64,000 nt of DNA from Candidatus Moraniibacteriota bacterium (GCA_003507445.1 DNVR01000008.1:29083-93082), one strand, 5' to 3'. Shown: positions 2,193 to 63,026, numbered from the stretch's first letter. Program-made: numbers and translations. Notes: generated by a model not told the origin, from the letters alone.

Positions 2193-2255
2193 ACCCAGAA
2201 ATTTCTTTTTTTATTTTAATATTTTTTTGCAATTCATAATTCTTAATACAAACCC

Positions 2256-2630: not shown

Positions 2631-2748
2631 TTGCAAAATACATTAAGGAAAAAGAAATTTCTGGGTACATCACATAACAAGGCACATGCGGTTCAAAAAT
2701 TTTGCATCTTTTAAAATTAGAGGTGTGCAAAATTTTCTCTCCCAAATT

Positions 2749-2992
2749 TTTTTCGGCTATGCCTTCAGAAAAACTTCAGATATGCCTAACGTTCATCTGA
2801 AATGTCGCTCCGCTACGCTCGCTCCATTTCAGATGAACGCGCGCGCCTGCCGTCGCTGTCATCTGCTGTGTTGCTTCTCCCTACGGTCGTGAGCAAACAC
2901 ATCAGATAACAGCGCCTATCCGAAATTTCCCTCGCCCCGACTGCTGTCGGGACTCGTGAAACATCGGATCAGGCGCGCGCGTTGTGCGAAAT
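2749..2992. repeat. GC-rich structured repeat element, copy C (full, includes 5' arm)
   Basis: 2791..2992 nearly identical to 1390..1591. The 5' arm CCCAAATTTTTTTCGGCTATGCC...CTTCAGATATGCCTAAC is shared with copies B and D. Confidence 0.8.
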
Positions 2993-3443
2993 GCATGTTT
3001 TCCTTTTGGGCTAACGCCCTGGCTCAAAAAAGAATCCGATTTTGTTTTTTCTTTATTTTAAAGAGGGGTTAAAAAGGTGTTTTTCTGCTCTTTGGGGAGC
3101 AGAAAAATTATACAAAAATTATACATATTGATTTTATTTATAAGCCATGTTAACTTATTATTATCAGTTAAGAATTTGTTTGTAGATTATGTTCTTTGTA
3201 TCAATTGATGTTATCCCACAGAAAGGAGGAAACTGCTTATGCGGAAGCTTATTGTGCTGTGCGCAGTTGTAGCTCTGGCTTAGAGACCATACCGATTTGG
3301 CCGGCGTCGTCGCCCGGCCGCCAGAGAAACATTCGCCCCCGATTCAAGAAACGGAAGAACCGTCATGGTGTAACCGTGGATTCTTGAATTGGCATAACCG
3401 ATAAACCGCCAACAAATGGATATACCCCCAAGGAGGTAATACC

Positions 3444-3542
3444 ATGACGACCAGCCGTGGACGACCTGTTTTCGCTCAGATGATCAAGGGAGAAGAAGCT
3501 GCCGGCAAGGTGAAGAAAGCCGAAGGTACAGCACTGGTCTAG
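3444..3542 (+). CDS. micro-ORF (32 aa) with consensus SD inside a GC-rich island
   Basis: AAGGAGG-7nt-ATG. Encodes MTTSRGRPVFAQMIKGEEAAGKVKKAEGTALV. Strong terminator 80 nt downstream. GC ~55%. Confidence 0.25.
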   Translation: MTTSRGRPVFAQMIKGEEAAGKVKKAEGTALV

Positions 3543-3622
3543 GACCGTGAAGTGGCCGGCCTCGTCCTTCCGGCCAAAATGGGGAAAGATAATCGTCAAC
3601 CGGACATCATGTCCATAACCTG

Positions 3623-3658
3623 ACCGCTCTCGGCATTGCTGAGAGCGGGTCTTTTTTT
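3623..3658 (+). terminator. rho-independent terminator
   Basis: ACCGCTCTC-GGCATTGCT-GAGAGCGGGT followed by TTTTTTT. Confidence 0.7.
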
Positions 3659-3863
3659 ATTTGCCACCCCAATAAATACCACGTATAATTACCAATAAGG
3701 AGTATTGGCTCCAGGCCATTCACCCTTAGCCCCTCTTCCCAAAACAAAGACGAAATTCAATTAATTCATTACAGAAATGCTATTCCTCTGCTGAGGAATG
3801 AAAAGAAAAAACAAACATCGCACAACAACGAGTATCCGGTTTCGACTTTTTCGAAAGTCTTCA

Positions 3864-3948
3864 CCCAAATTTTTCTTTCGCTATGCTTGGTCAAACTTCA
3901 GATACTGCTAGACGTTCATCTGAAATGTCGCTCCGCTACGCGCGTTCG
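3864..3948. repeat. GC-rich structured repeat element, copy D (large internal deletion)
   Basis: 5' arm, GTTCATCTGAAATGTCGCTCCGCTACG, then CGCGTT. Shares its 5' arm with copies B and C. Confidence 0.6.
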
Positions 3949-4052
3949 GAAAAAAACTAAAAATTTCCTCTCTATTTTGAAAAGAATTTTTTGGCAATTT
4001 TGTTCGGTCGAACTAATTTTAAACAATTCAAAAAATTAATTTTAAAAACAAA

Positions 4053-4898
4053 ATGATGAGAAATAAAAAAGAAAATATTACCATAATTATAATTATCGTA
4101 ATTTTAACCTTATCCGCAGGAGTTATCGGCTGGATGCTAGCGAAGAACTCGCAAGATGTTTCAAAATCTAAGATAGTTAATAATTCAAAACTAATAAGCA
4201 CAACAGAACAGTCTTCGGAGCCGACAAATAAAATTTCTGAATCGTTACCTCCTGTTGATGAAATCGCTATTAACGATTTTTCCATAGCTATTGTCGCAAA
4301 CAATGATCTGCACTGGTCTAGTCGCGCAAATGTCAAATCAGATACTTCAATTCAATTTCGCTGGACAACAACAGGTGCGGATAGTTGCAATATAAGTGGC
4401 GGAAATTTATTTAATTCGAATACAAATTTAGCAACAAACGAAACAGGAATTAAAAAAGTTGCAGATGATTTTTCGAACGGAATCTACACATTAAAATGTG
4501 TAAGAAAATTAGATAATAAAACAGCAGAGGCAACTCCTATAATACTCAATGTCACACCAGCTAAAAAGTTAGTCATGTGCATGAAAAAATGCGGAAATGG
4601 CGGAATACCCATTCAGCAGAATATGAATCGCTTCTCTGGTGAAACAGTCCAAAAAGTCCGAGCGTGTTTTGGAAATTTTGCGTTGGATTGTCCAACACAG
4701 GATGTTACCAAAAATGCCGAATGGCTAACTAGTAATAATTCGATAATTACTTGGTCAAAGGATTATACGGTCGATGGAGAGAAGATAGTGGATGATGTGT
4801 ATCCCAATAAAACCCTGAAATCAGTCGGTGCAGGCAATGCTGAAGCCAGTGTTACATATTCTGGTTATTCATATGTTGTGAGGGTTGATGTGAAGTAG
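4053..4898 (+). CDS. hypothetical secreted/membrane-anchored Cys-containing protein
   Basis: 281-aa ORF with N-terminal signal-anchor ITIIIIIVILTLSAGVIGWML. No recognised catalytic motif. Confidence 0.5.
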   Translation: MMRNKKENITIIIIIVILTLSAGVIGWMLAKNSQDVSKSKIVNNSKLISTTEQSSEPTNKISESLPPVDEIAINDFSIAIVANNDLHWSSRANVKSDTSIQFRWTTTGADSCNISGGNLFNSNTNLATNETGIKKVADDFSNGIYTLKCVRKLDNKTAEATPIILNVTPAKKLVMCMKKCGNGGIPIQQNMNRFSGETVQKVRACFGNFALDCPTQDVTKNAEWLTSNNSIITWSKDYTVDGEKIVDDVYPNKTLKSVGAGNAEASVTYSGYSYVVRVDVK

Positions 4899-14040: not shown

Positions 14041-14452
14041 TGTATATATGGTGGAGTTGATGGGAATTGCACCCATGTCCAAAATTGACAATCCAAAATC
14101 CTCTACAAGTTTAGTTTATTTTTTCTCACCGAAGCGAGTGCGACTAATTAGAGTAGAGAATAAACAAAACCTCTAAATGCCGTTTTCAGAATTATTTCGC
14201 ATTTTGTGTCCAAAAAACCACAAAACACTATTCTCATGTTTGACACCGAGGTCTGCTTACGAGAAATCAGCAGTTCGATGGCTTCGAGCCTAAGCTAAAG
14301 CAGGTGAAAAACCAGCAAATGCTTGCGCAAATGTAGCTTTCGCCTTTGATATGAAGTTTGCACTTATATCTTCGCCACACTTTTTACGATACAGCAGCGG
14401 TGATCGACTTGCATATTTTGAAAAGTACAACCTGTCGAAACTAAACAACCCC
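14041..14452 (-). ncRNA. ssrA: tmRNA (ssrA)
   Basis: Minus-strand 5' GGGGTTGTTTAGTTTCGACAGG matches the tmRNA 5' consensus. 3' end reads ...GGACATGGGTGCAATTCCCATCAACTCCACCA with encoded CCA. Acceptor pairs 7/7 including the G3-U wobble. Adjacent to smpB. Confidence 0.75.
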
Positions 14453-28882: not shown

Positions 28883-29031
28883 GAACTGCAACCCCAGTTA
28901 AATACTGCGGAGTACCGCAATTTAACGGGGTAAACATACAACATACAACAAAATACAGAATACAAAACATATAACATATAGCATGTAACAAATAGATACT
29001 AAATACTAAATACTAAATACTAAAAAAACTT

Positions 29032-29785: not shown

Positions 29786-30166
29786 ATGTCAAATGATAAA
29801 AGGATATATGATTTGGAGGAACGTACGGAAGTATTTGGTGAGAATATTATTGAATTTTGCAAAATAATTCCAAAAACAGCATTAACAACCGTATTGACGA
29901 ATCAACTTTTGCGATCAGGGACTAGCGTGGGAGCAAATTATTGCGAAGCGGATTGTGCTGAATCAAGAAAAGATTTTGAACATAAATTGGGAATTTGTAA
30001 AAAGGAAGCCAAGGAAACAAAACATTGGCTTAGGATGATTGCAAAAGCTGCACCTGAAATTAAAAGTGAAGCGCAAATATTATGGAAAGAATCAAATGAG
30101 CTGCAGTTAATATTTATTGCGATTATTAATAAGTCAAAAATAAATGAAGCAGAGAAGAAAAGATAA
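29786..30166 (+). CDS. four-helix-bundle protein (23S rRNA intervening-sequence protein family)
   Basis: LRSGTSVGANYCEA ... KDFEHKLGICKKEAKETKHWL matches the conserved core of the family. Confidence 0.65.
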   Translation: MSNDKRIYDLEERTEVFGENIIEFCKIIPKTALTTVLTNQLLRSGTSVGANYCEADCAESRKDFEHKLGICKKEAKETKHWLRMIAKAAPEIKSEAQILWKESNELQLIFIAIINKSKINEAEKKR

Positions 30167-30241
30167 GTTTGGAAATTATATATTGAAAATTTTGTTAGAA
30201 ATTGGATATTAGAAATTAGTAATTAAACGAAGTATTCTCTG

Positions 30242-33200
30242 ATGGGTGTAATCGGAATAAGGAAAAATATAAAAAGCAAAAATTGGGGACTGAAAATTAT
30301 TTCAGCGTTTTTTGCTTTGAGTTTCTTTTTTGTGGCTGTCGCTTCAGCTGAAGTCGCTCCAACAATCTCTGAAATTTCTCCAAATAATGGGTTGCCAGAG
30401 GGTGGAACAAGTGTGACGATAACTGGAACAAATTTTTCTCAAAGTACAATAGATGCAAACACGAAATTGTTGATTCAAGGTAACGGCACAGGTGCAAGCT
30501 TCGTTGATTCTGAAATAACCCCAAAGACAGTTACCGCTGTTGGAAATGTCACCCAATCTTCTGCGCAGTCAAAATTTGGAGGATCAAGTGTTTATCTTGA
30601 TGGAAATGGCGATTATTTGTCTTTAGCGGACAGCGAGGATTGGGCTTTTGGCACAGGAGATTTCACAATGGATATGTGGGTTAAAACAACCGAATCTGAT
30701 GGTTTCTTGCTTTCTCAGATGCCTTCAAATGGTGCAGCGGGAGTTGCTAGTTTTTATTCAGTTGTGAGTGTGGATGGAAAAGTTATTTTTGTTCCTGATT
30801 ATGTTTCCTACCCAAGTCATCACACTATAACATCAACAGTTTCTGTTAATGATGATGCTTGGCATCACATCGCATTTGTTAGGAACGGCGCATATATAAG
30901 AATGTATATTGATGGAACAGAAAGTGGCACAGCTTTAAATATGGGCGCTGGTTTTACTATGACAAATTCTGCTGAACTTTTGAAAATAGGTAGCATTGGG
31001 CTTCCAGAAAATTACAGTCCTTATGGTGGGTATATTGATGAAATCCGTGTTTCCAAGGGGATTGCTCGCTGGACCAGCAATTTTACACCTCCATCTTCTG
31101 AAAATCATTTGCAATCAACATTAACAATCGGTGGAACTTCTGCCACAAATATTGCAGTTACAAGCCCAACTACAATTACCGCCACAACTCCTGCTCACGC
31201 TGCGGGTGCAGCTGATGTAGTGGTTACAAATTACGACGGTCAATCTGCAACACTGACAAGCGGATATACTTTCAATGCTGCTCCAACCATTTCTGCAGGA
31301 GCTGTTACTCCAGCGAGTGCAAAACTTACGGGTGGCGACACAATTACAATTACAGGATCTGGTTTTTATGGAACTCCAAGTGTAACTCTTGGTGGAACAG
31401 CTGCGACTGCTGTTACAGTAGTAAATCCAACCACAATCACCGCGACAACCCCAGCACATTCTGTTGGTGCTGTTGATGTTGTGATTACAAATGAAGATTC
31501 GCAAAGCGCGACACTTGCAAACGGATTTACATTCACGGAACTTCCACCGACAGTTTCAGGAATTTCTCCAAGTGCTGGTTCACCTGCTGGCGGAACAAGT
31601 GTGACGATAAGTGGAACTAATTTTTTGGTTGGAGATGTTGATACATACACTAAAGTGTTGCTGCATGGTGATGGCACGGGAGCAAGCTTTGTTGATTCTG
31701 AATTAATCCCAAAAGTAGTTACAGCAGTTGGCAATGCTACTCAATCTGCTGCGCAATCTAAATTTGGAGGGAAAAGTATGTATTTTGATGGGAGTGGTGA
31801 TTATCTTGATTTGGCAACCTCTGCTGATTTTGGTCTCGGCACAGGTGATTTTACTGTGGATTGTTGGGTAAATTTCTCCACTGTAACTAATGCAATATTT
31901 GTGAATACCACTAGTTCAGCAAATGGATTCTTTTTTCAATACTATAATAATGCTTTTACTTTTGGTCAAAATAATGTAGGTTTTGTAATTAATACACCTT
32001 GGACGCCTTCTATAAACACTTGGTATCACATAGCAGTGACAAGGGCGAGTGGCACAACCAAAGGCTTTATTAATGGAACGCAAATAGCATCTGTTAGTGA
32101 TAATTATAATTACGCTAACAATATATTGCGCGTAGGTGAAAGCGTTAATGGTTATCTAGATGAAGTCCGTGTTTCAAAAGGGATTGCTCGTTGGACTAGT
32201 AATTTTACACCGCCGTCTGCTGAATATCACTCACAACCAATGTTAACTTTTGGCGGAATCTATGCTACAAATGTCGCAGTCACAAACCCAACTACAATTA
32301 CCGCTACAACTCCTGCTCACACTGCAGGTGCAACTGATGTTGTCGTCACAAATTACGATGGACAAAGTGCAACACTAACAAGTGGTTACACTTTCAATCC
32401 TGCGCCAACAATTTCTGCTGGAGCAGTTTCTCCAGCCAGTGCCTTGAAGACAGGAGGCGACACAATTACAATCACGGGAACAGGATTTTATGGCACACCT
32501 ACCGTAACTTTGGGAGGAACAGCTGCGACTGCTGTTACAGTAGTAAATCCAACCACAATCACCGCGACAACCCCAGCACATTCTGTTGGTGCTGTTGATG
32601 TTGTGATTACAAATGAAGATTCGCAAAGCGCGACACTTGCAAACGGATTTACATTTACAGAACTTCCATCAACAGTTGGATCAATTTCTCCAAATAATGG
32701 AACTGTTGCAGGTGGAACCAATGTGACGATTACGGGGACGAATTTTATTGAAAACAGCGCAACAGGTGGAACGATTACAACCTCTGGAGAATATACAGTG
32801 CATACATTTACAGGAAGTGGAACGTTTGTGCCGAATAATGAGATGGATGTTGAGGTTTTGGTTGTTGCTGGCGGAGGTGGAGGTGGAGGTGGAGAACCTA
32901 GTGCTGGCGATTCTGGTGGTGGTGGAGGAGCTGGAGGATACAGAACTGCAAATCTTACAATATCATCAGAATCTCATAATGTGACTGTGGGTGCTGGAGG
33001 CGCAGGTGCAGCAGGAACATCTTTACCAGGAAATAAAGGGAATGATTCAATTTTTGATTCCATAACTGCAGCAGGTGGAGGTGCTGGTGGAATAGAGGGC
33101 GGAAGTGGTGGAGCTGGAGGATCTGGAGGTGGAGCTGGAGGTCTCTGTTCAGTTCCAGTTTCAGGAGGAGCAGGTAATACGCCAGCAACGACACCAAGTC

Positions 33201-36200
33201 AAGGAAATAATGGAGGATTTACACCCGGGACAACTTGTTCTGGGCGAGCTGGTTCTGGCGGTGGTGGTGCTGGCGGTGTTGGAGGTGCAGGAACCACTGT
33301 TAGTGGCGCTGGTGGTGCGGGCGTAGCAAGTGATATTACCGGAACTTCTATAACAAGAGCTGTTGGTGGTGCTGGCGGACAAAGCGGCAGTGGAACAGGT
33401 ACAGCAGGAGCTGCAAACACTGGAAATGGTGGAAAAGGAGGAGGAATAAGTTCTGCTGGTGGTGCAGGAGGAAGCGGTGTTGTTATTGTTAGATATTTGA
33501 CCCATAAACCAGTAGTTACCATCGGTGGAACTTCTGCTACAAATGTCGCAGTCACAAGCCCAACCACCATCACTGCCACAACTCCCGCACATACCGCAGG
33601 CACAGCTGATGTGGTGGTTACGAATTATGACGGACAATCTGCAACGCTGACAAATGGATACACTTTCAATCCTGCGCCAACAATTTCTGCAGGAGCAGTT
33701 TCTCCAGCCAGTGCAAAACTTACTGGAGGCGATACAATCACAATCACTGGAACGGGATTTTATGGCACACCTACCGTAACTCTTGGAGGCACAGCTGCGA
33801 CTGCTGTTACAGTAGTAAATCCAACAACAATCACTGCGACAACTCCCGCACATTCTGTTGGCGCTGTTGATGTTGTTATTACAAATGAAGATTCTCAATC
33901 CGCAACTCTTACCAATGGATTCACTTTCACAGAACTTCCACCAACACTAAGTTCAATTTCTCCTGATAACGGTCCAGTAGCAGGGGGAACTAATGTGACG
34001 ATAAGTGGTACGAATTTTGTCGCTGGGTCTGTAAGTGCAATTGGCGGAACAATAACAACTGATGGTGATTATACGGTACACACATTTACAGGTAGTGGAA
34101 CATTTACAGCTGATAGTGATATGCCTGTGGAGGTTCTGGTTGTTGCTGGTGGTGGAGGTGGCGCAGGAATGGCTGAATCTGGTGGAGGTGGAGGAGGTGG
34201 AGTGCAACATCATACTTCATGGCCAATAAATGCTGGTGCAAATTATAGTGTTGTAGTTGGAAATGGTGGTTTAGGTGCTACAAGTGTTTCAAATGGTGCA
34301 AATGGTGCAAATTCATCTTTTGGCGAATTGATTGCTAATGGAGGTGGTGGAGGAGGTGGATTTATCGGTTTAACTCCAGGATCTGGAGGTTCAGGCGGTG
34401 GATCTACGCGAGGAGTTGCTGCAGGATTGAGTAATCAAATTTCAATTAATGGTTCAAATTCTTACGGAAATCCTGGAGGTGTTGGATGGCCAAGTGGATA
34501 TACGGCTGGAGGTGGTGGAGGTGCTGGTTCTGCGGGAGGAAATGCTACTAGTGGAGTGTATCCAGATGGAGGTGTTGGAGGTGCTGGAAGAGCATTTGAT
34601 ATTTCAGGAACATCAACATATTATGCTGGAGGTGGTGGAGGAATTTATGCTTATGGTGGTATTGGTGGTGGAGGCAATGGTAATATGGGAACAGTTGAAT
34701 CTTATAATGGTGTGGCTAATACTGGAGGTGGAGGAGGTGGAGGAGCTAATGTAGTTGGAGGAGATGGTGGTTCTGGAATTGTAATAGTGAGATATTTGAC
34801 AAAGGCTAAATTGCCAACCGTAATAATCGATGGAATTGCAGCTACAAATGTTTCACTTGTGAACCCAACCACAATAACAGCAACCACTCCTGCTCACACT
34901 GCAGGTGCAACTGATGTTGTCGTCACAAATTACGATGGACAAAGTGCAACACTAACAAGTGCGTTTGAATATCACAATTGGATTACGGCAGGAACGTATA
35001 CCTCAACAGTTAAACCTCTGGCTAATGTTGGATTTGGAAACATTGATTGGGTTGCTGGCACGCCTGCTAATACTAATTTGACAATGCGAGTAAAATCTTG
35101 CACCTCTGCTGATTGCAGCGACAAACCAAGTTGGTCTGGATGCGACTTGGCTGCGCTGGACAATGGTACCGATATTTCCGGTAAGGGTTGTGTGGTGGAT
35201 GGCCAAGGTTATGTTCAATATCAAGCATATCTTTCAACTGATTCAAATTCTGCTCAGCCATATCTCGACAGCGTCACAATTTCAACTCAACCAGAATATT
35301 CCAAAACATTTTTAAGTCTCATTTCTTCTCCTTTTGATACGGGAAATGAAAGCAACAGTGTTCAAAAAATTTCTTGGACTGCAACAAATGACAACTTGGC
35401 AACTCAGGGACAAGTGGCAATACAAATTCGAACTGCACCGGATAATGGCGGAATTCCTGATTTTACAAATTCAGTTTGGTGTGGGCCGACTGATTGCAGC
35501 GGCACAACAAATTCAACAACAGCTTTTGCAATCAGTTATTACACTGACAAAACAGGGGCTCTTGCGATAAATGCAATTAACAAGGATCTTAGTGATGATC
35601 GTTGGATTCAATATGCAACATTCTTGAAATCAGCTGATGGAACTTTGACTCCGACATTGACTGATGTGACGATGCAATATGCATATAACACTCCACCAGC
35701 AATTACAATTGACAGCAACCCAATATTTTTAAAGCAAAATGCAGATGGAACTTTCTCTGTTCCATACACCTTAAGTGAAACTTATGATGATTTTGGTAAC
35801 ATTCCTCACGGAACAGCTGGTTCTCCGATTAAAGCACTTCTTTTTTATCAACCGAAAAATGACATCACAATTGAAGAACTTACAAATGTTCGAACAGGAA
35901 TTGTCACCCTCAATAATCCAAGCAATCTTCCAATTCCATCGCAAGGTTCAATGCTGATTGGCGATGAGTTGATGACTTTTGATTCAGTTGGAGCAACTGG
36001 AAATCAAAGAAACATCACAGCGCGTGGAATTGCTTTTGCAACTTCATATCCAACCACGGCTGCTGCACACTTGGCAAATTCCGCAGTATTTTTTGCAACT
36101 TCAGCTTCGATTCAAACAATCGATACGCTTGTTGAGACGGGCATAGTTGGCGCTGAGGCATCCGTATCAAATATGTTCTCTTGGAATCCAAGAACTGATG

Positions 36201-39200
36201 TCAATACAAATTTGAATGGTAACAAACTTTCAGACGTGGTTTTCAAAGTTGCTGCCAACGACGCTGATTCAACCAACATTAATAATATCGGACAAAGCAG
36301 TGCGACCACTTCGCAAGTTCTGGATTTGGAATCTCCTTTGATTAAAAATGTCACTTCATCTTCGGCTGATGGGAAATATAACGCTGGAAAAAATGTGGAC
36401 GTCACGATTAATTTTGCTGACAGTCTTGGCAACGCAAAGAATGTGACTTCAACAGGCGCTGTCACGATAGTTTTGGAAACTGGCGTTAATGATTATGAAT
36501 GCTTGATCCCATCTATCACAAACGCATCAAGCGCATCTTGCACATATCAAGTCCAAACAGGCGATGTTAGCGAAGATCTAACTGCAATTTCTGTAAGCGG
36601 AACAATTAAAGATCAATTCCAAAACACTCTTTCAAACTTTGCGATTCCAGCAGGACAAAACATTGCTGATTCAAAAGCTATTGTTATCGATACAATTTCT
36701 CCAATCATTTCAGGTGTGTCGCCAGCAGCAAGTGCGTTTGTAAATTCAATCACTAGCGCTAATGGTGGCTCTGATATTTCGTATGAAGCGACAGAACTTT
36801 TAAAAACAGGATCATATGTTAAATTCACTTCAACTTCGGGAACAGATTTGAACACCGAATATCTTTGCACTTTGCAGGGAACAGCACTTGAGGTTGGCGT
36901 GCACAGTGGTTTTGAAATCAAACAAGATGCAAACAACTGCACTGAAGTTCAAAGCGCGCTTCAAAGTGGTTCTGTTTATACAATGACAATTCACGCCATT
37001 GACGAAGCTGACAATGCCAGTGACCAAACAATTGCAAATATTAATTTTGACACAACCAATCCGACAGCTAGCGTAACTTCCCCATCAAACGATGCCTTTT
37101 TCAACAGCATTACAACTGGCTCAGATGTTTCATATAATCTTGATGAACAGTTGCAAGCAGGCAGTTATCTTAAATTCACTAGAACTGCTGGTAGCGCTGA
37201 TGGATCTTCTCCGCGAACTTGTAATTTGACAGGGACTGAGCTTGAAGAAGGTGATCATAATAATGTGGACTTGAACGCTGTCTGTGGAGGATTTGCTTTA
37301 GTAGATGGTGCAGTTTATTCAATTGATCTTTTCGCTAAGGACTTGGCTGGAAATGAGGCAAATGCAACACAAAAAACAAATGTTACTTTTGACCAAACTG
37401 CTCCAACACTCAACTCATTTACTTCAGACAAGGCCAACAACACGCCAGCTACAGCTTATGGCGCAGGGGAAGTGATTGATATTAAGGCGGTTTACAGCGA
37501 ATCATTGGCAGTTGGCTCAACAATGACAGTTAGATTGGAAAACACAGCAACGCCCGCTGTTGATGTTGTGCTCGATCAAATTGCTGGAAATGTGCTTTCG
37601 GGAACATTTGTTGTGGACGGTCCGCGTAAGGGATATGACACGGCTGATTTGACTTTGCGATCAATTGTTTCTCAAAATGCTATCGATCAAGCTGGCAATG
37701 TTAAAACTGATTCGGCGATACCGTTTGGACAAAACTTAGGAGACAACAAAGACATTGCGATTGATACAGGAACTCCAATTCTGGAAAGTTTTGCTGCTCA
37801 AAAACTTCCTGAGAATTCAACAAGCGGTTCTTACAAAGCAGGAACGGAAATAAAAATAACCGCGACATATTCCAAACCAATTGCCTCTGGCGAAATCACG
37901 CTGCATCTTAATACTCAAAATGGAGCTGAAGACATTGAAAACATTGTATTGTCAACAATTTCAGGTTCTACAATTTTCGGCACACACACTGTGCAAAATC
38001 TGGACAACGCTGAAGACTTGAAAGTTTTTGCCATCACTGCTCAAAGCGTTACTGACTTTAAAGGTAATGTGCTTGATAGAACAGGAACAATGACTGAATA
38101 TGACGCATATTTCACTTCGCTTGTTGGCGAAAACATTTCTGCTGTTACAAATATTTCCAATTTCAAAATTGACACAACTGCGCCAACACTTGGAGCAACG
38201 CCAATTGCCATTGCAAATGTCGCAGGAAAAACTAGCAGTGCAACCCCAGTGATAACATTGTCTGCAACTGATAATGATATTTCTAAAGCAATCTTCTCAT
38301 TGGATGGGGGAACTTCTTGGTGTGCTCCAATTGATTATGGTGCAACAATAAACACATTTGACATTACATCTAGTGCTTGCGGTGGTTCTGCTTCCAACGA
38401 AGTAAAAACTGTCACAGTCAAGTTCAGCGATGTTGCTGGCAATGAGAGTGCAACTTCCAGCGCTTCAGTTGAATATGATAATTTGAAACCACAGTTGCAA
38501 ACAATTACTGCTGATGTGGTCGGCGGAATCTATGGACCAAATTCAGTTATTAAAATCACTGCAACATATGACGAAGACATTGCCAGTGGAACATTAGTTG
38601 TCAATCTTAACAATGGAAAGCAGCTTACGATTAATACTGTCGAAACGGCCAGAACACTGGTGGCAAATTATACTGTTGGCGCAACTATTAGTGGCGAAGA
38701 CACAAGCGCGCTTCGTGTAGCTGCAATTGTTTCGCAAGCTGTTTCTGATTCAGCTGCCAACACGCAAGACGGAACCAGTCTGGCTGGAATAACTGCCAAC
38801 ATCGACACTGATAAAACAATTATAATTGATACTACTGCGCCAAGCGCTGCTGCGCCAGACGGCTCGATTGTTGCTGACAGGGCAAGCGAAGAAAACAAAA
38901 TAAAAATTACAATTTCTCCTGATGATTGGGGTGTGGCAAAGGATGAAATGACCGCTCAAATTGCGCTGATGGACACGGTGGTTGCTTGCAACTTTACTGG
39001 CGCAAATGCAGCAGTCTTCAACAGTGAATTTCCAAAAACATTTACATATGATGACCTTGCAGGCGCAGTGAAAAAAGTTTGTGTTAAATTGACTGACAAG
39101 GCGGGGAACATTTCTTCTGATTTCAGTGTGGTCACTCCAAACACTCCTGAAAATTTCGTGTATACTGATCTTACCAGCGCGACGTTTACAGGTGCGATTT

Positions 39201-49815: not shown

Positions 49816-52038
49816 TTATTCAAGGTGGATATTTTGTTGGAATTTGTTGAGCTCTTTTTGTAGGAGTGGGTAGTCTTTCAAGTCGGGGCTGTTTTGCAAA
49901 GTTTGCTCGGCGTAGTCGTGGGCGATTTCAATCAGTTTTACGTTCGACAAATGCTCCATTGCGATGTCGGGAAGACCTGATTGGCGCGTGCCGAGAAATT
50001 CGCCGGGACCACGGAGTTTCAAATCTTCTTCTGCAATTGCAAAACCGCTGGATGTTTTCTCCATTGCACTAAGACGTGATTTTGCTTTGACGGTTTTGCT
50101 GCCAGTGAAAAGAAAACAATATGATTGCTTGTCTGATCTGCCGACTCGTCCACGAAACTGATGAAGTTGAGAAAGGCCAAATCTTTCCGTATCCTCGATC
50201 ATAATCACAGTGGCATTTGGAATATCAATACCAACTTCTACCACGCTGGTGGCAACCAAAATGTCATATTTTTTATCTTTAAAATCGGCCATCACTTGCT
50301 CTTTTTCGCCAGCTTTCAATTTGCCGTGCAGAAGTCCCAATTTTAAATCTGGAAAAATTTCCCGTGACAGTCGTGTATGCTCTTGGGTGGCAGCTTTAAG
50401 TTCTGTTAATTTTTCTGATTCTTCCACTAGAGGGAAAATGATGAAAGCCTGATGGCCCTTGGAAATTTCTTTGCGCACAAAATCATACACATCTTTTCTT
50501 TTGCTTGGCAAAATAATTTCAGTGAGAATAGGCTTTCGATTTTTGGGCATTTCATCCAACACTGAAATATCCAGATTTCCAAAAAAAGCTAAGGTCAATG
50601 TTCGGGGAATCGGAGTTGCTGTCATCGTGAGCAGGTGGGGAATTTTTCCTGGCAAGCCGTCATTAATATCAGCAATCTGCTGTTGCAAAAAAGCACGTTG
50701 AGCCACGCCAAAGCGATGTTGCTCATCGATGATTATTAAAGCTAAATTTTTAAATTTTATATCTTTCTGAATAAGCGCGTGAGTACCTATTACAATGTTA
50801 ATATTGCCAGACACTAGTTCCGATAGTAATTTTTTTCTAGAAATATCCTCTTTTTTTTCTGCTGATAATTTTGAATTTTGAATTTTGAATTTTGATTGAA
50901 TTTTTAATGTTTTAATTTTTAAACATTCATCATTAAGATTTGATTCGAAATTCGAAATTCGAAATTCTGATTTATTAATCAAATGATAGGAATTCGTTAA
51001 AAGTCCTACAGTTATGTCTTGCTTTGAAAATATTTTTGATATACTTTCAAAATGTTGCTTGGCCAAAACTTCTGTTGGAGCCATAATGGAAACCTGAAAA
51101 CCAGCATTAATGGCTGACAAGCTCGCCATTGCAGCCACAATTGTTTTGCCACTTCCCACATCGCCATTAAGCAGACGATTCATTGGAAGAGGTTTTTCCA
51201 AATCTTTCAAAATTTGAAATGCAGCTTTGCGTTGAGCATCAGTGAGTGTAAAAGGAAGTGACTCGACGAAATATTTGGTCAGTGTTTCATTGAAAGCAAT
51301 TGAAACAGCATTTTGTTTGTCCCATGAAATTTTGACTCGCTGAGTTGCAAGTTGTACCAAAAACATTTGCTGAAAAGCAAAACGTTTTTGCGCAAGTTCA
51401 AATTCTTTGAGCGTTTTTGGGAAGTGTAAAGATTTTACAGCTTCACTCAAGATTGGCAGATGCAAACCCTTCAAAATATTTTCTGGAATTGGGTCAACAA
51501 GCGCATCGGCATATTTGATCATATTTTGCATTTGCCAGCGAATCCATTTTGAAGTGAGGCCTTCTGTTTCTGGATATATTGGAACAAGCCGTCCTGTGTT
51601 GGTTGGGGTGCGCGAAGAAAGTTCCCAAGCGGGATTGGAAAAAAACATTCCTTTTGCATCTTGCGAGATTTTTCCAGCTAGTCTCACGCCTTTGCCGGCA
51701 GTGAGCGAATCACTGACATATGGTTGGTTAAACCACACAGCTCTCACAGTGCCAGTTTCATCACTCACAAAGCACTCTGTGATCATCATCTTCTTTTTCC
51801 AAGTGCGCACCAATTTGCTTTGTACAACTTCTCCCATCACAGTGGCCGTTTCTCCTTCTTGAAGATTTTCAATCAAAACCCGCTCGGAATAATCTTCATA
51901 GCGAAAAGGGAAGTGCAGCAAAAAATCCTCCACAGTTTCAATGTTGAGTTTTTTTAAAATCGCGCCATATTTCATCCCGATACGCGGCAGTTTTTCCAAT
52001 TTCATCTTCAAAAAATCCATACCTAAATTATAACTCAA
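49816..52038 (-). CDS. recG: ATP-dependent DNA helicase RecG, carrying an in-frame repeat insertion
   Basis: Walker A GDVGSGKT, DEQH box IIDEQHRFGV, motif VI QFRGRVGR, N-terminal wedge/OB region. Inserted segment NFESNLNDECLKIKTLKIQSKFKIQNSKL encoded by 50867..50967. Confidence 0.85.
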   Translation of the reverse strand: MSYNLGMDFLKMKLEKLPRIGMKYGAILKKLNIETVEDFLLHFPFRYEDYSERVLIENLQEGETATVMGEVVQSKLVRTWKKKMMITECFVSDETGTVRAVWFNQPYVSDSLTAGKGVRLAGKISQDAKGMFFSNPAWELSSRTPTNTGRLVPIYPETEGLTSKWIRWQMQNMIKYADALVDPIPENILKGLHLPILSEAVKSLHFPKTLKEFELAQKRFAFQQMFLVQLATQRVKISWDKQNAVSIAFNETLTKYFVESLPFTLTDAQRKAAFQILKDLEKPLPMNRLLNGDVGSGKTIVAAMASLSAINAGFQVSIMAPTEVLAKQHFESISKIFSKQDITVGLLTNSYHLINKSEFRISNFESNLNDECLKIKTLKIQSKFKIQNSKLSAEKKEDISRKKLLSELVSGNINIVIGTHALIQKDIKFKNLALIIIDEQHRFGVAQRAFLQQQIADINDGLPGKIPHLLTMTATPIPRTLTLAFFGNLDISVLDEMPKNRKPILTEIILPSKRKDVYDFVRKEISKGHQAFIIFPLVEESEKLTELKAATQEHTRLSREIFPDLKLGLLHGKLKAGEKEQVMADFKDKKYDILVATSVVEVGIDIPNATVIMIEDTERFGLSQLHQFRGRVGRSDKQSYCFLFTGSKTVKAKSRLSAMEKTSSGFAIAEEDLKLRGPGEFLGTRQSGLPDIAMEHLSNVKLIEIAHDYAEQTLQNSPDLKDYPLLQKELNKFQQNIHLE
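50867..50967. repeat. heptamer-array element inserted in-frame within recG
   Basis: (AATTTTG)x4 - spacer - (CGAAATT)x3 on the + strand. On the coding strand, same architecture as 13239..13350. Confidence 0.75.
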
Positions 52039-57849: not shown

Positions 57850-58578
57850 CTATTTCGTTTCCTGCCTGGCAATTACGATTGCGAAAACCTCGCTTGCCCC
57901 CGCTTCTTTTAATATTTTGGCGCATTCAAAGAGGGTGGAGCCAGTGGTGGCAATGTCGTCAACCAACAAAACAGTTTTGTTTTTGATTTCCGCATTAGGA
58001 GAGAGTGAAAATGCTCCGGCAATATTTTGCTTGCGCGAAATGTGATCTTTTATTTTCATTTGTGGCGACGTGTAGCGATTGCGAATAAGAATGTTTTCGT
58101 CAAATGATATTTTGTTTTGAGGCAATAAATTGTCGGCAAGATGTTTTGCGAGCAGCGCTGATTGATTGAATCCTCGCCAGCGGAGTCTTCTTTTGTGAAG
58201 CGGCACTGGTGTTATGATGTTTGGCAGTGGAAGTTCTGTTTTTCTTAAGACATTCACAAATAAATTTCCCAAAGGAACGTGCAAATCATCCACGAAGCGA
58301 TATTTGAAAAGATGAACTGCTTTTGAAATTTGAAATTGGGAATAGGAAGCTGCAACAACCATTCCATCAAGAGAACTTTTTTTCTTGCAAGCAAGACAAG
58401 TTTGTCCATCCGGAGTAATCATTTTTTCGCATATTGGGCACAAATGTTCCTCATTAATGTGAATGTTATTTTGACATTTGTTACAAAGCCAAGAACTCTC
58501 TTTTTTGCAGTTTATGCAAGAAATAGGAAATAAAGTGTCCAATAATATGAAATGCGTTTTTTTAAGAAAGTTTTTCAA
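57850..58578 (-). CDS. comFC: ComF-family protein (double zinc ribbon + phosphoribosyltransferase domain)
   Basis: CINCKK...CNKCQ / CPICEK...CLAC zinc ribbons and PRPP-binding VLLVDDIATTGSTL. Confidence 0.8.
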   Translation of the reverse strand: MKNFLKKTHFILLDTLFPISCINCKKESSWLCNKCQNNIHINEEHLCPICEKMITPDGQTCLACKKKSSLDGMVVAASYSQFQISKAVHLFKYRFVDDLHVPLGNLFVNVLRKTELPLPNIITPVPLHKRRLRWRGFNQSALLAKHLADNLLPQNKISFDENILIRNRYTSPQMKIKDHISRKQNIAGAFSLSPNAEIKNKTVLLVDDIATTGSTLFECAKILKEAGASEVFAIVIARQETK

Positions 58579-58700
58579 AATTATGATATGATAATAGTGT
58601 CATTGTAGGGAAATAATAAAAAAGAGTTGTTGTTTGTTTTTCAAAATTATGTTATTATGATAACATAATTTTCGAGTTGTAGTATAAAACAAATATAAAA

Positions 58701-59804
58701 ATGTTTGAATTTTTAAAGAAAGTAGACAATCACTTTGTCGGAATAGATTTTGGAACATCCTCAATTAAAGTTGTGGAGCTTTCCTTTGAAAATCAAAAAA
58801 CCAAATTGGAAAATTATGGTGTTGTTGATTTGAACTGGAATGGGCAAGGCGATCAAACAAAGGGTGCAAGTGTTTCTTCTTATGAGCAAAAATTGAACAG
58901 CGCACTCAAGAGCTTAATTGCAAAAATGAAATTGAAACGAGGCTCAAAAGCGTTTGTTTCCATTCCTGGATTCAGCGGGCTTATAACAATCATTGAATTA
59001 CCTGAGATGCAGCAGGACGAGCTTGCCAGGGCTATTCAATTTGAGGCTCACAAATATATTCCAAGCTCTCTGGATGAGGTTGCAATGAGTTGGGAGATTA
59101 TTGAACATCTTGAAGCGGACAAGGTGCCGCAGCAAAATTTGGAGAAAAATAATGCCAAAAGAATAAGGGTTCTTCTTGTTGCTGCACCAAAAAAAGACAT
59201 TGAACACTACGACAGACTTGTTTCTGGAATGAATATGGAAGTTAGAGCCATCGAATTGGAAACTTTTTCAATCGCACGCTCTTTGGTGGGAGAGGATGTT
59301 GGCAACTTTTTTATTATCGATATTGGTTCTCGAGCAGCTAATATGATTTTAGTAGAAAAAGGAGTTGTGACAGTTAATCGAAATATTGATGCTGGTGGAA
59401 ATGAAATTACAACTGCTATTGTTGATAGTATGGCTGTTTCAAGACAACGGGCAGAAAGTTTTAAAAAGGGAGATAAGGATTTGATAAACAGCAGGGAATC
59501 AGCACTTGTTATTCCAGTGCTGGAATTGATTGCAAGCGAATCAAAAAGAATATTGAACGCTTGTAGAGAGAAAAATAAAAACTTGCGCATCGATGGGATT
59601 TTTATTTCAGGCGGCACATCAAAAATGAAAGGCCTTGAAGAATATCTCACTAGCTCGCTTGGAATGCCTGTTACAGTGGGAGATCCTTGGAAAAGAATTT
59701 TAGTTGATGAAAATGCTAAACCGTTAGTGTCTCAACTAGGGGCTTCTTTTTCTGTCGCAATCGGTCTTGCTCTGCGAGGAATAGAAGAGTATAAACGTAA
59801 ATAA
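58701..59804 (+). CDS. pilM: type IV pilus assembly protein PilM (actin-like ATPase fold)
   Basis: FVGIDFGTSSIKVVEL N-terminal phosphate-1 motif, 367 aa. Followed by PilN/PilO-like genes. Confidence 0.75.
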   Translation: MFEFLKKVDNHFVGIDFGTSSIKVVELSFENQKTKLENYGVVDLNWNGQGDQTKGASVSSYEQKLNSALKSLIAKMKLKRGSKAFVSIPGFSGLITIIELPEMQQDELARAIQFEAHKYIPSSLDEVAMSWEIIEHLEADKVPQQNLEKNNAKRIRVLLVAAPKKDIEHYDRLVSGMNMEVRAIELETFSIARSLVGEDVGNFFIIDIGSRAANMILVEKGVVTVNRNIDAGGNEITTAIVDSMAVSRQRAESFKKGDKDLINSRESALVIPVLELIASESKRILNACREKNKNLRIDGIFISGGTSKMKGLEEYLTSSLGMPVTVGDPWKRILVDENAKPLVSQLGASFSVAIGLALRGIEEYKRK

Positions 59805-59886
59805 AAAATAAAAACATAATAAAAGAAATTAATATAATACCTCAGTTGAATAGTCGCCAAAGGCGAATTCAAAGGGGCAAGAAAAA

Positions 59887-60423
59887 ATGACCACTATAAA
59901 TTTGCATCAATCCCAGCAGGAGGACAATTCTTTTTTGAAAAGCGGGAACAAAGGAATGTTTTTTTCATTGGGAATTTTAGCTGTTATTGTATTGTTGTTT
60001 GCAGCATTGAAATTTTATGTTCCAGTTGTGGAAGGAAAAGACAACGCTTTGGCAGAGACTATCTTGGTTGAAAAAGGAAAAATTGTCAATTTGAAAAGTC
60101 TTGAAATGTCTATGGATACGCAAAATCGTCTAACTGAAATTAAAAAAAATCTTGAAATTGAAAATGAAAACGTAACACGTCTGGAAATTACCAAGGTACT
60201 TGATTATCTTGGCGAAGATATGAGCTCAGGAATGCTTGTTTCTGAATTTGAATATGATCAAGAAAAAGTGGTCGTTTCTTTTAAGGCTGATAATTTTAAT
60301 AACTTGGCTTTGCAAATTTTCAATCTTAAAAATTCCAAATATTTTGATGAAATAAACATTATGGACGTTGCTCGTAGTGAAGAAGGTGTAGAATGTAACA
60401 TTGAAATGAAAATTAAAAAATAA
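59887..60423 (+). CDS. pilN: PilN-like bitopic pilus assembly protein
   Basis: TINLHQ N-terminus (INLLP-like), single TM helix, coiled-coil periplasmic region. Gene order after pilM. Confidence 0.45.
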   Translation: MTTINLHQSQQEDNSFLKSGNKGMFFSLGILAVIVLLFAALKFYVPVVEGKDNALAETILVEKGKIVNLKSLEMSMDTQNRLTEIKKNLEIENENVTRLEITKVLDYLGEDMSSGMLVSEFEYDQEKVVVSFKADNFNNLALQIFNLKNSKYFDEINIMDVARSEEGVECNIEMKIKK

Positions 60424-60488
60424 AAGATAAAAATATATATTGTTCTCGTTTTTGCTTAGAAACAAGCAATAACCTGGATTTAAAAAAA

Positions 60489-61265
60489 ATGAAATTAAAA
60501 TTCCTTTTCTTTCCCATTATGCTTTCTGTCTCGGTCGTTATTTTTATTAGTTTTGTGTGGCCGGAAATAAATAATATCAAAAAAATAAATGAGGATATTA
60601 TTGCAAAAAAAGAGGAATTAAAAGAGATTAATAACAGAAATGCAGCAATTGAAGCGCTTGGGAAAGAACTTGTTGATAACGCTGACATACAAAATGTTGT
60701 AAAAAGATATTTGCCAAGCAATAAAACTGAGGAGCGAATTATTAGTGAAATAAATTTTTTGGCCAACGACGCGAATGTCTCCTTGTTGGACATTTCCTTG
60801 AAAAGTGGCGAAAAGGCTGCTGCTCCAACAACTAAAAATGTTACATCTCCTGATGGTCAAGAAACTTTAAATGAAATTAATTCATTGCAAACAATTCCCG
60901 CTGAGATTTCAATCGCTGGCGAATATGAAAAAATAAGGATATTTCTCAACAACTTGCAAAGAATGCCGGTTTTTAATGTTGTTAAATCTGTGAAAATTGC
61001 AAAGCAAACAAATGAAACAGATGGGGAGCAGGAGGCAGAGGGAGAGCCTGTTGTTAACAACAGTAATTTGTTGTTGGCCGATGTCGAAATAAATTTTGGG
61101 TATTTGGATACTATAAAAATAAATAATCAGAAAGTTGAAAATTTTAATGCCATTTTGGATAACGAAACAATTGTCGCCTTGAAGAAATATATTCCTCAAA
61201 AGGCTCAATTAATCGGGGATTATATTGCTCCTGAAGGAAAGCAAAATCCGTTTGTCGTTAATTAA
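60489..61265 (+). CDS. pilO: PilO-like bitopic pilus assembly protein
   Basis: N-terminal TM helix, coiled coil, periplasmic domain. Position between pilN and pilB. Confidence 0.4.
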   Translation: MKLKFLFFPIMLSVSVVIFISFVWPEINNIKKINEDIIAKKEELKEINNRNAAIEALGKELVDNADIQNVVKRYLPSNKTEERIISEINFLANDANVSLLDISLKSGEKAAAPTTKNVTSPDGQETLNEINSLQTIPAEISIAGEYEKIRIFLNNLQRMPVFNVVKSVKIAKQTNETDGEQEAEGEPVVNNSNLLLADVEINFGYLDTIKINNQKVENFNAILDNETIVALKKYIPQKAQLIGDYIAPEGKQNPFVVN

Positions 61266-61307
61266 TTTTTGCTACCCGAATTCCTGATTTAAGGTTCCTT
61301 ATTTATT

Positions 61308-63026
61308 ATGGAGAAAAAAAATACATCGAAAAAAAATGTCGCATCAAATGCAAGCAAATCAAACTTGGCGCATTCTGATTCTGATGAAATAGCAAAAAAA
61401 GCCAAGGAATTGGGAATTCCGTATCTTCAAGATGCTCCAATCATCAATTCCGAAACGTTGAATATTATTTCTGAAGACATTGCAAAGCAAAATAAAATCG
61501 TTGCTTTTGAAGCAAGTGGAGCCAATGTTAAAATAGCAATAATTGATCCGCAAAATACAAATGCCCTTAACATCCTGCGCTTTATTTCTGAAAAAAGAAG
61601 ATTAGAGTTTGATTTGTACTTGGTTTCGGAGGTGATTTTTCAGAAAATGATAGAGCAATATGAAGGTGGCGCAGAGAAAGCTATTGAAGAAGCAATGGAT
61701 TCTTTGCAGATGGAAAGTGTTAAGGATATGAATTTGACGGCAGAAGAAGATGATGACTCAAAAGCTAATGATAGTTTGCAATCAGCGCCTGTAACAAAAC
61801 TTTTAAGTGTCGTTATTAGGCACGCAATTGACGGAAAAGCGAGTGATATTCATATTGAGCCGTATGGAGCAAAAGAATATCGCGTTCGTTTTAGAGTTGA
61901 TGGTGTTCTGTATGCTTCTCTTTCTATTCCAAAAGAAGTTGGCAGGGCTGTTGTATCAAGAATAAAAATTCTTTCTAATTTGAAAATAGACGAAAAAAGG
62001 AAACCTCAGGATGGAAGATTTAAGATTAAAGAAGATGGACATTCGGTTGATTTTCGCGTGTCGACTTTGCCTGTGATTGATGGTGAAAAAGTCGTGTTGC
62101 GTCTTTTGGACACGGGTAGCAAGGTCATCGACCTTGAAAGTATGGGGCTTATGGGAAGCGGGCGGGAAATTCTTACTCGAAATATCAAGGAACCATTCGG
62201 TATTATTTTAATGACGGGTCCAACAGGAAGTGGAAAATCAACAACACTGTATGCTTGTTTGGATATTCTTAACAAAGAAGAACGAAACATAATAACACTT
62301 GAAGATCCTGTGGAATATTCAATCTCCGGAATCAATCAAAGTCAAATAAACCCAGAAATAGGATATACTTTTGCCAGTGGACTTCGCAGTATTTTGCGTC
62401 AAGATCCTAATGTTATTATGGTTGGGGAAATTCGTGACAACGAAACGGCTGAGCTTACCATTCACGCAGCACTCACGGGGCATTTGGTTGTTTCTACTTT
62501 GCATACAAACAGTTCTATCGGTGCAGTTCCGCGACTTATTGATATGGGAATCGAAGCTTTTTTGTTGGCCTCATCTCTTCGAGTTGTGGGAGCGCAGAGA
62601 CTTGTACGAAGAATTTGCAGCGATTGCAAAGAAGAAGTGAAAATTTCTCCGGCAGTTTCAGAATATATTCATGAACAAATAGACAAAATGTCAAAAGAGG
62701 AAATTGAAAAGTATAAATTAAATTTGGAAGACGGAGTGCATATGTATAAAGGCAAGGGATGCGAATCTTGTGGGAATAGCGGATATAAGGGTCGCGTAGC
62801 AATTTTTGAAGCACTTGAAATTGATAAGGAAATGAAAGAAATAATTTCTGAGCACAATGGTTCAGAGACCGCTGTTCAAGAATATGCCAACAAGCAAGGA
62901 ATGGTAACAATCAAACAAGACGGTGTGCTCAAAGTTTTGCTTGGACTGACAACGCTTGAAGAGGTTGAAAGAGTAACCGAGGGAAGCAAAAATGTTGGAG
63001 GCGAGATGGAGGATGATAAAGGCTAA
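61308..63026 (+). CDS. pilB: type IV pilus assembly ATPase PilB (GspE family)
   Basis: Walker A GPTGSGKSTT, Asp box, His box, tetracysteine CSDC...CESCGNSGY zinc motif, N-terminal GspE_N-like domain. Confidence 0.85.
   Translation: MEKKNTSKKNVASNASKSNLAHSDSDEIAKKAKELGIPYLQDAPIINSETLNIISEDIAKQNKIVAFEASGANVKIAIIDPQNTNALNILRFISEKRRLEFDLYLVSEVIFQKMIEQYEGGAEKAIEEAMDSLQMESVKDMNLTAEEDDDSKANDSLQSAPVTKLLSVVIRHAIDGKASDIHIEPYGAKEYRVRFRVDGVLYASLSIPKEVGRAVVSRIKILSNLKIDEKRKPQDGRFKIKEDGHSVDFRVSTLPVIDGEKVVLRLLDTGSKVIDLESMGLMGSGREILTRNIKEPFGIILMTGPTGSGKSTTLYACLDILNKEERNIITLEDPVEYSISGINQSQINPEIGYTFASGLRSILRQDPNVIMVGEIRDNETAELTIHAALTGHLVVSTLHTNSSIGAVPRLIDMGIEAFLLASSLRVVGAQRLVRRICSDCKEEVKISPAVSEYIHEQIDKMSKEEIEKYKLNLEDGVHMYKGKGCESCGNSGYKGRVAIFEALEIDKEMKEIISEHNGSETAVQEYANKQGMVTIKQDGVLKVLLGLTTLEEVERVTEGSKNVGGEMEDDKG

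Follow-up and report, generated by a model that had tools for sequence, protein, structure and literature searches.

A putatively recombining array of split TIG domains around different nested domains in a giant surface protein gene of a Candidatus Moranbacteria bacterium

The alpha C/Rib proteins of group B streptococci are repeat adhesins of variable size. Repeat-mediated size variation of adhesins and the formation of chimeras have been described for the yeast FLO genes (PMC3512402) and for variable tandem repeats (PMC3899988), and antigenic variation systems that operate by gene conversion have been reviewed (PMC4534519). In RTX adhesins such as AhLap of Aeromonas hydrophila and FrhA of Vibrio cholerae, a split domain and a ligand-binding domain together form a unit (PMC12077191, PMC10865825). 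These split domains are immunoglobulin-like (Ig-like), alternate with extenders, and project carbohydrate-binding, RTX-like, or vWFA domains (PMC12077191); the ligand-binding combinations are of a "mix-and-match" kind, and like domains within an adhesin share very low identity (bioRxiv 10.1101/2025.09.30.679566). Here we describe a giant surface-protein gene, located at positions 30242..41353 of a 64,000-nucleotide (nt) stretch of DNA from Candidatus Moraniibacteriota bacterium (GCA_003507445.1 DNVR01000008.1:29083-93082), and compare it with these systems. The whole stretch is referred to below as the window. Our reading, to which we assign a probability of roughly three in four, is that the 5' region of the gene encodes the N-terminal, ligand-binding TIG array of a Sec-secreted, fiber-like surface protein of an ultrasmall groundwater bacterium of Candidatus Moranbacteria (Parcubacteria; candidate phyla radiation, CPR) and that the conserved frames of this array recombine.

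Bacteria of the CPR, or Patescibacteria, live attached to other microbes, and, to our knowledge, the determinants of their host choice are largely unknown. In a cultivated, genetically tractable patescibacterium, epibiotic growth was found to require multiple adhesins (PMC10633639). The locus described here represents a concrete candidate for a host-recognition fiber.

The split-TIG array and its cargo domains

The open reading frame (ORF) at 30242..41353 (11,112 nt), which like all features of the gene given below lies on the + strand, was translated into a protein of 3703 amino acids. An exact look-up identified this product as HBI33866.1 of NCBI, annotated as "hypothetical protein" in a third-party-assembled Candidatus Moranbacteria metagenome-assembled genome (MAG). 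Its first 36 residues, MGVIGIRKNIKSKNWGLKIISAFFALSFFFVAVASA (30242..30349), read as a Sec-type signal peptide, which is probably cleaved. We compared the window with public contigs (designated L001, L002, etc.) and with a further sequence (P0145), and the N termini encoded by L005 and of P0145 are homologous to that of the window protein. In the first 1580 residues, Pfam recognized 11 stretches of IPT/TIG (PF01833; 272.8 bits for a cutoff of 20.9), two of Laminin_G_3 (PF13385; 109.2 bits for a cutoff of 27.6), and two of Gly_rich_2 (PF21722; 117 bits for a cutoff of 24.3). The 11 TIG stretches correspond to three whole domains, four N-terminal halves (N-halves), and four C-terminal halves (C-halves). 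Mapping of motifs and local hidden Markov models (HMMs) located seven N-half motifs (GGTxVTIxGxxF) and seven C-half motifs (TTITATTPAH) in strict alternation. Seven TIG domains open the protein, and each of numbers 1, 3, 5, and 7 harbors, at one loop, an entire further domain; the order of the halves is N/C, NC, N/C, NC, N/C, NC, N/C, where the slash stands for an inserted LamG or Gly-rich domain. The array is followed by a stalk (34979..41353), in which Pfam found Ig-like, FN3, and PhoD_N-like domains and which terminates in an FN3-like domain and the sequence NIIQIIIGNFTEIFGWAKF. A repeat search returned no repeat families in the gene beyond 35 kb, and the stalk is non-repetitive.

When an N-half and a C-half were joined, they could be aligned end to end with an intact TIG domain, with about 50% identity. 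The sole real gap in this alignment is a 5-residue loop, YGTPS, and we therefore consider this loop to be the insertion point. The array opens with the N-half of TIG1 (30350..30439), assigned by motifs and a local HMM, which corresponds to strands A and B of the domain. AlphaFold2 modeled residues 37 to 436 with a predicted local distance difference test score (pLDDT) of 89.6 and a predicted template modeling score (pTM) of 0.70. In this model, two N-half strands (5-10 and 21-27, both with pLDDT values above 90) are followed by the LamG sandwich and then by five strands that are ordered as in the next intact TIG. Going by this order, the two halves would pack as one domain. Both the alignment and the strand order describe an Ig-like fold that is interrupted by a complete domain and then completed.

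The repeated DNA is a frame of 507 nt. It opens with the C-half of one split TIG, continues through an uninterrupted spacer TIG, and closes with the N-half at which the following split TIG begins. Alignment and local HMMs delimited three complete copies, namely, F1 (31121..31627; TIG1 C-half, TIG2, and TIG3 N-half), F2 (32243..32749; TIG3 C-half, TIG4, and TIG5 N-half), and F3 (33515..34021; TIG5 C-half, TIG6, and TIG7 N-half). According to the alignment, the C-half of TIG7 (34820..34978) is a fourth, partial copy, and it is here that orthology with the relatives resumes. In a preliminary description of this DNA, a triple Ig-like module of about 430 bp had been proposed to recur three to four times with 85 to 100% identity, interleaved with TIG+LamG or TIG+Gly-rich units, in a region starting at 31120. 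The recurrence (three copies and a partial fourth) and the presence of TIG, LamG, and Gly-rich domains hold, but the repeated block measures 507 nt, its copies share 82 to 84% DNA identity, it contains not three Ig-like modules but one whole TIG with half of a split TIG on either side, and the units have to be parsed as nested domains. The array begins upstream of the proposed start, at 30350.

Four cargo domains are nested in the split TIGs. Cargo 1 (30440..31120, in TIG1) is a LamG jelly-roll of the Laminin_G_3 family, as seen by Pfam, a local HMM, and AlphaFold2. Cargo 2 (31628..32242, in TIG3) is another LamG, which was assigned by a local HMM and sequence identity and shares 44% of its amino acids with cargo 1. 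Cargo 3 (32750..33514, in TIG5) is a Gly-rich domain that matches Gly_rich_2 and was modeled by AlphaFold2 with pLDDT values above 90 across the domain, and cargo 4 (34022..34819, in TIG7), recognized by Pfam and a local HMM, is a second Gly-rich domain in a slot that holds a Kelch domain in relatives. About half of the positions are identical in the two Gly-rich modules, and the value is 56% over the whole unit. In fold comparisons, the LamG model resembled jelly-rolls that bind receptors or carbohydrates, namely, botulinum toxin (BoNT) Hc-N, domain 4 of AbnA, and the SraP lectin, whereas the Gly-rich model resembled the tail tip of phage Bxb1, the fiber of cyanophage Pam3, and the TG domain of ALK/LTK. 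Judged by these models, the predicted cargo folds are typical receptor binders, and by analogy the giant protein would be an adhesin or a host-recognition fiber.

Exact repeats and unit number in contigs of one strain

Two pairs of exact repeats were identified within the frames. The C-terminal parts of TIG2 (31394..31533) and TIG4 (32516..32655) share a run of 140 bp, and the C-halves of TIG3 (32309..32384) and TIG7 (34886..34961) share a run of 76 bp. The former had been reported as 31394..31534 and 32516..32656, one base too many, since the last base differs; the latter had been reported as 32309..32383 and 34889..34963, a register in which identity is 35%, and the matching segment starts 3 nt upstream. 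Both spacings, 1122 nt (374 codons) for the 140-bp repeat and 2577 nt (859 codons) for the 76-bp repeat, are in frame. In permutation tests, a run of 140 nt was reached in none of 20,000 shuffles, and when third codon positions only were considered, the P values were <1e-5 for the 46-codon run and 8e-5 for the 25-codon run. Given the divergence of the surrounding sequence, both exact runs are far beyond chance.

Many public contigs encode proteins that are 100% identical to those neighboring the giant gene in the window. Two scaffolds from different samples, L017 (136 kb) and L008 (91 kb), contain a version of the gene that encodes 4092 amino acids, and a third contig, L018, from another pipeline, has the order LamG2, repeat, LamG3. 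A comparison of L017 with the window revealed no mismatches over gene nt 1-2414 and over window positions 32183-38999, with 1167 nt (389 codons) extra in between. There is a single mismatch between the two in 9.1 kb upstream. On the downstream side, 20.3 to 20.7 kb of L008, L009, and L010 match the window without a difference, and for L017, L008, and L018 taken together the agreement, with 0 mismatches, covers at least 20 kb. Because their flanks are identical, we consider these contigs to be variants of one strain. The extra unit consists of one more split TIG (the third in order), which carries LamG3, and of another spacer TIG, and the resulting five-slot order is LamG1, LamG2, LamG3, Gly a, and Gly b. 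Perfect direct repeats of 473 nt (spacing of 1167) and 384 nt (spacing of 1122) are present in the five-slot allele; their overlap is the 140-bp repeat of the window, which occurs there in three copies. The window gene is exactly the five-slot gene minus one unit across the 473-nt repeat: contig alignment showed that the junction segment (32183..32655), single copy in the window, forms elsewhere a 473-nt perfect direct repeat around the LamG3 unit. Unit number among assemblies of one strain is either four or five, and the junction falls inside this repeat. The cores of LamG2 (window 31778-32182) and LamG3 (L017 gene nt 2659-3108) are 33% identical in amino acids and 51% in nucleotides, with a third-position identity of 0.39, whereas their flanking arms show zero differences. 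Such identical arms around diverged cores would be expected to arise only by recombination and not by mutation after a duplication.

The one-unit difference at the 473-nt perfect repeat, together with the codon mosaic detailed below, bears out the earlier proposal that the repeats are recombination substrates able to resize the protein in frame. The doubts that had been raised about the assembly because of the repeat identity were also justified, since the same-strain contigs carry a gene that is 1167 nt longer. As for the suggested size or phase variation, the contigs agree with a possible change of size through whole units, whereas nothing points to a programmed or high-frequency phase variation.

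Every short-read contig of the strain and of its relatives has an end within the array, and the distance of this end from the edge of a repeat corresponds to the k-mer size used, which independently confirms that the repeats are real in the samples. In six of these contigs (L014, L015, L019, L020, L021, and L023), the end lies k-1 to k nt inside the 140-bp repeat, and three others (L009, L012, and L013) begin exactly at 32183. In a second MAG of the same kind, the gene is broken at the start of the 473-nt repeat, with the contig ending 21 nt into the repeat.

How the two gene versions relate to each other can be explained in several ways. According to the first explanation, to which we would give slightly less than even odds, the window represents an assembly collapse: the real gene has five slots (4092 amino acids), and the assembler passed the repeat loop only once, so that the LamG3 unit was lost. 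The five-slot order was seen three times, in contigs that come from three different samples and were produced by at least two pipelines, and the window differs from these contigs only at repeats. These include an (ATACTAA) array, with four copies in the window versus 14 in L014 and scaffold gaps in L017 and L015. In addition, no other contig joins the core of LamG2 to Gly-rich a across the repeat, and the second MAG breaks exactly where the repeat starts. Two observations on contigs assembled by MEGAHIT (k141) speak against a collapse. L016 continues to gene nt 1536, where the 384-nt repeat ends, thereby crossing the break expected for a five-slot gene, and L009, L012, and L013 run from 32183 past the repeat end into Gly-rich a. 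As far as can be judged from assembler behavior, this suggests that the junction from the repeat to the TIG N-half preceding LamG3, which exists only in the five-slot gene, is absent from the samples of these four contigs. L019 and L011, from another sample, break where a five-slot genome predicts.

The second explanation, likewise a serious one that falls just short of an even bet, is a real polymorphism, in which four- and five-slot alleles coexist in the aquifer, the repeats of 140, 384, and 473 nt having served as sites of unequal homologous recombination. There may also be a four-slot allele in which LamG3 replaces LamG2. The patterns of contig ends vary by sample as if only part of the samples contained the diagnostic junction, and the identical flanks are those expected of variants of one strain. 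There is also a parallel in another species: L001 and L004, which are 99.6% identical over 9.3 kb, differ by one in-frame indel of 150 nt, corresponding to a Kelch blade, in a nested Kelch cargo (identity 5' of this indel is 94.5%). However, the argument is built on assembler behavior and not on reads, and no contig other than the window has a complete four-slot array. Furthermore, a four-slot protein with LamG3 in slot 2 (3718 amino acids) is not on record in the protein collection, which neither proves nor excludes such an allele.

That the five-slot form is itself the artifact, generated by threading in tandem two four-slot alleles that differ in the LamG core of slot 2, appears improbable. 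The 140-nt repeat is longer than the k of most assemblers, so that a graph loop can take both cores, and L016 as well as L009, L012, and L013 fit a simple bubble. However, LamG2 precedes LamG3 in all three informative contigs, which come from different pipelines, and L018 crosses the first copy of the repeat into LamG3, a path that needs paired-read support. HBI33866.1, with its 3703 amino acids, may as deposited be one domain unit short, and comparable gene models taken from short-read MAGs should enter comparisons of copy number or architecture only after the reads have been checked.

Evolution of frames and cargo

At the protein level, the frames are 87 to 90% identical, and 61 to 72% of their DNA differences are located at third codon positions. 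The background third-position difference between frames is 0.27 to 0.38, and within it lie sharply bounded perfect tracts, one of 46 codons shared by F1 and F2 and one of 25 codons shared by the C-halves of TIG3 and TIG7. Sites that were informative in a three-way comparison (n = 113) were split 42/33/38 and were clustered, forming 48 runs (permutation P < 1e-5). On the basis of these perfect tracts and clustered sites, the sequences indicate that repeated short-tract gene conversion has probably involved every copy, in addition to purifying selection. With 33 to 56% identity, the cargos are far more diverged than the frames.

A dedicated diversification system, i.e., a diversity-generating retroelement or expression-site/silent-cassette switching, is very unlikely to act on the gene. 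CPR genomes are rich in surface proteins targeted by retroelements, and the repeat lengths resemble pairs of template and variable repeats. However, no reverse transcriptase was detected among the window ORFs of at least 150 amino acids, and the mismatches have no adenine specificity; a diversity-generating retroelement was rejected on these grounds. In addition, tblastn found no copies of the frames or the cargo outside the gene in the 64-kb window, and silent-cassette switching of the pilE/pilS or vlsE type was rejected for the window because of this lack of donor copies. Purifying selection on the TIG fold as the only cause of frame similarity, without recombination, can be dismissed as highly improbable: the frame protein is highly conserved and the differences are mostly synonymous, but selection leaves unexplained the 46 consecutive identical codons beside a third-position difference of about 35%, the clustered and conflicting patterns of the three-way sites, and the zero differences in the 384- and 473-nt arms that enclose cores of 51% identity, and the permutation tests, the clustered sites, and these arms led us to reject it.

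The same seven-TIG scaffold is present in a complete orthologue of 4241 amino acids on L005, which is from the same organism as L002. Its cargo is, in order, Gly-rich, DUF2341+LamG, DUF2341+LamG, and Kelch, and two of its frames share an exact run of 455 nt. Between the window and L005, homologous DNA extends to position 34018, the GTNF codon of TIG7, and is found again from the beginning of the C-half (34815). Since homology stops and resumes at these points, the cargo of slot 4 has been replaced precisely between the frame edges. The stalk shares 76 to 80% nucleotide identity with that of L005 and 82.5% amino acid identity with that of L001 over 2124 residues. On L001 and L004, Kelch propellers occupy all three slots that are visible before the contigs break. 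L006, from a related species, is syntenic with the window upstream, and its array starts one unit later, without the first unit of the window; the first LamG of this array is 91% identical in amino acids to the LamG in slot 2 of the window and is followed by a Gly-rich slot. In this contig, we also noted a frameshift in the first TIG C-half, and a Bro-N gene (L006:2403-3245) holds the place of the gene for a 23S-rRNA-intervening-sequence protein (29786..30166) that is located directly upstream of the giant gene in the window. Another contig, L003, showed 45% identity. The frames of the window group with one another, as do those of L005, but such grouping by genome does not hold for L001 and L004, and homogenization therefore varies between lineages.

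On these grounds, we favor the view of the region as the ligand-binding array of a secreted, fiber-like protein with recombining frames and propose the following mechanism. The chain would leave a split TIG after two strands, at the site of the YGTPS loop, fold a receptor-binding domain, and return to finish the TIG. Purifying selection and repeated short-tract gene conversion would keep the frames alike, while the cargos diverge. Because the frames share a reading frame and end exactly at domain boundaries, recombination between them would leave the protein intact, and homologous recombination could add, delete, or replace whole cargo units. RecA-type recombination is the probable agent, and the variation of the cargo is presumably under selection. 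Such gain, loss, or replacement of whole domains by recombination in conserved frames would offer a simple route to changed fiber specificity. CPR bacteria are naturally competent and depend on attachment to host cells. A further idea, which we put forward tentatively and regard as somewhat unlikely, is that the TIG frames are standardized recombination arms with which CPR bacteria swap, duplicate, and drop binding domains within the gene or between strains, thereby retargeting the fiber, and that frame homogeneity is kept for the sake of this exchangeability.

A number of points weigh against a recombining, ligand-binding array in a fiber-like surface protein. (i) The function as an adhesin is argued only from domain content and analogy, and either end of the protein could be the distal one. 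(ii) Contact between the halves of the split TIGs was deduced from strand order and not from coordinates, and in a second AlphaFold2 model, in which few alignment rows covered them, the TIG halves were of low confidence. (iii) The frames of L001 and L004 are 69% identical and have no long exact run, so that homogenization is not universal in the family. (iv) The evidence consists of assembled contigs; the difference between four and five slots could be purely an assembly artifact, in either direction, and bubble popping in short-read assemblies can exaggerate the identity of perfect tracts.

Neighboring features and comparison with known systems

Other repeats and genes of the window deserve mention. 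The (ATACTAA) array (28996-29024) lies 8 nt upstream of the ATG of a TPR gene (29032). L017 and L015 have at least nine copies of its unit in addition to their scaffold gaps, and several same-strain contigs begin at this array. The array is either a repeat close to the promoter that is hypervariable or a further repeat that has collapsed in this assembly. Tandem arrays with a period of 7 nt are unusually many in the intergenic DNA; they have about four copies (~30 nt) of units that differ in sequence and were located at 13241, 13320, 13976, 14016, 14512, 14609, 28966, 29744, 30195, 41472, 41542, 50867, 50943, and 52956. Four of them flank the transfer-messenger RNA gene (14049-14452), and one is just upstream of the start of the giant gene. 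This last array, (TTAGAAA)x4.4 at 30195-30225, is identical in L017, the alignment with which shows no differences from 29023 until after 32655; a simple-sequence contingency locus was rejected, as the array has the same length there and the heptamer array that does vary lies upstream of another gene, the TPR gene. The ORF-poor stretch at 1206-4053 contains a repeated noncoding element with a perfect repeat of 202 nt (1390-1591 and 2791-2992) and an 84-nt GC-rich core in three copies (1517, 2118, and 2918), which also occurs in part at 2063 and 3863. For this repeat-rich region (1.2-4.05 kb), Rfam gave no match of meaningful score.

A second large surface gene (42888..47108; 1406 amino acids) is a downstream paralogue of the giant gene. 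Its orthologue in L002/L005 (L002:9717-15260) encodes 1847 amino acids and contains an insert of about 450 residues with Gly_rich_2 and another domain. The corresponding break in the 1406-residue paralogue is clean, between ...SSYP and AIISTPYDTTSQ, and since the insert is missing there, gain or loss of cargo also takes place outside the TIG scaffold. The two giant proteins have identical last 19 residues (the terminal sequence given above for the stalk; 41297-41353 and 47052-47108), whereas DNA identity over the 1 kb before them is only about 60%. After both stop codons follows a GC-rich element of about 105 nt (41354-41460 and 47109-47209), of which the two copies are identical. Its conservation, 97% in L002/L005 and 90% in L001/L004, exceeds that of coding DNA (~78%); the predicted fold has an energy of -30.7 kcal/mol, the variation is too little for covariation, and the element matched no Rfam family. 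The shared C terminus could be a sorting or anchoring signal or a conversion tract that is continuous with the 3' element. Further downstream are recG (49816-52038) and, at 57850-63026, a ComFC-like gene (phosphoribosyltransferase plus double zinc ribbon) together with genes for the type IV pilus (PilM, a PilO-like protein, and a PilB-type ATPase). These genes are parts of a DNA-uptake and recombination toolkit, which would be relevant to an exchange of cargo between strains.

The comparison with known systems leads to the following picture. (i) Shared with RTX adhesins are a complete, putatively ligand-binding domain set into an Ig-like domain, the alternation of split with ordinary domains, kinds and orders of such inserted domains that vary among relatives, and the unreliability of short-read assemblies. 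Unlike RTX adhesins, the window protein has an N-terminal Sec-type signal peptide, an N-terminal array, a CPR bacterium as its source, and a TIG/IPT scaffold, and it has no RTX beta-roll and no type I secretion signal, with no RTX or HemolysinCabind family among its Pfam hits. It also differs in that the stalk has no long run of near-identical tandem extenders, the scaffold is near-identical in DNA and bears conversion tracts, and the cargo comprises LamG, phage-fiber-like Gly-rich, Kelch, and DUF2341+LamG domains. (ii) With size-variable repeat adhesins, the gene shares in-frame intragenic repeats whose recombination would change the number of units, as well as paralogous repeats that would recombine into chimeras. 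In contrast to those proteins, the repeats here are a constant frame around a payload, and recombination would alter the binding domains displayed and not just the length. (iii) Short tracts between conserved flanks and mosaics of a surface protein are features in common with antigenic variation by gene conversion. That likeness does not extend to silent donor cassettes, of which there are none in the 64-kb window, and the donors therefore appear to be units of the same gene or other strains. (iv) Phage receptor-binding fibers likewise exchange modules at conserved junctions and share the Gly-rich fold (Bxb1 tail tip, 9d93; Pam3 fiber, 7ypx), but the gene described here is a cellular, chromosomal one that is flanked by housekeeping genes and carries several binding modules per chain. 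The apparent novelty lies in a frame that stays constant, is recombinogenic, and surrounds payload domains of different kinds, here in a CPR bacterium. The display of domains by split Ig-like folds in a secretion context unrelated to that of the RTX adhesins of Gram-negative pathogens suggests that fibrillar adhesins follow a general design rule.

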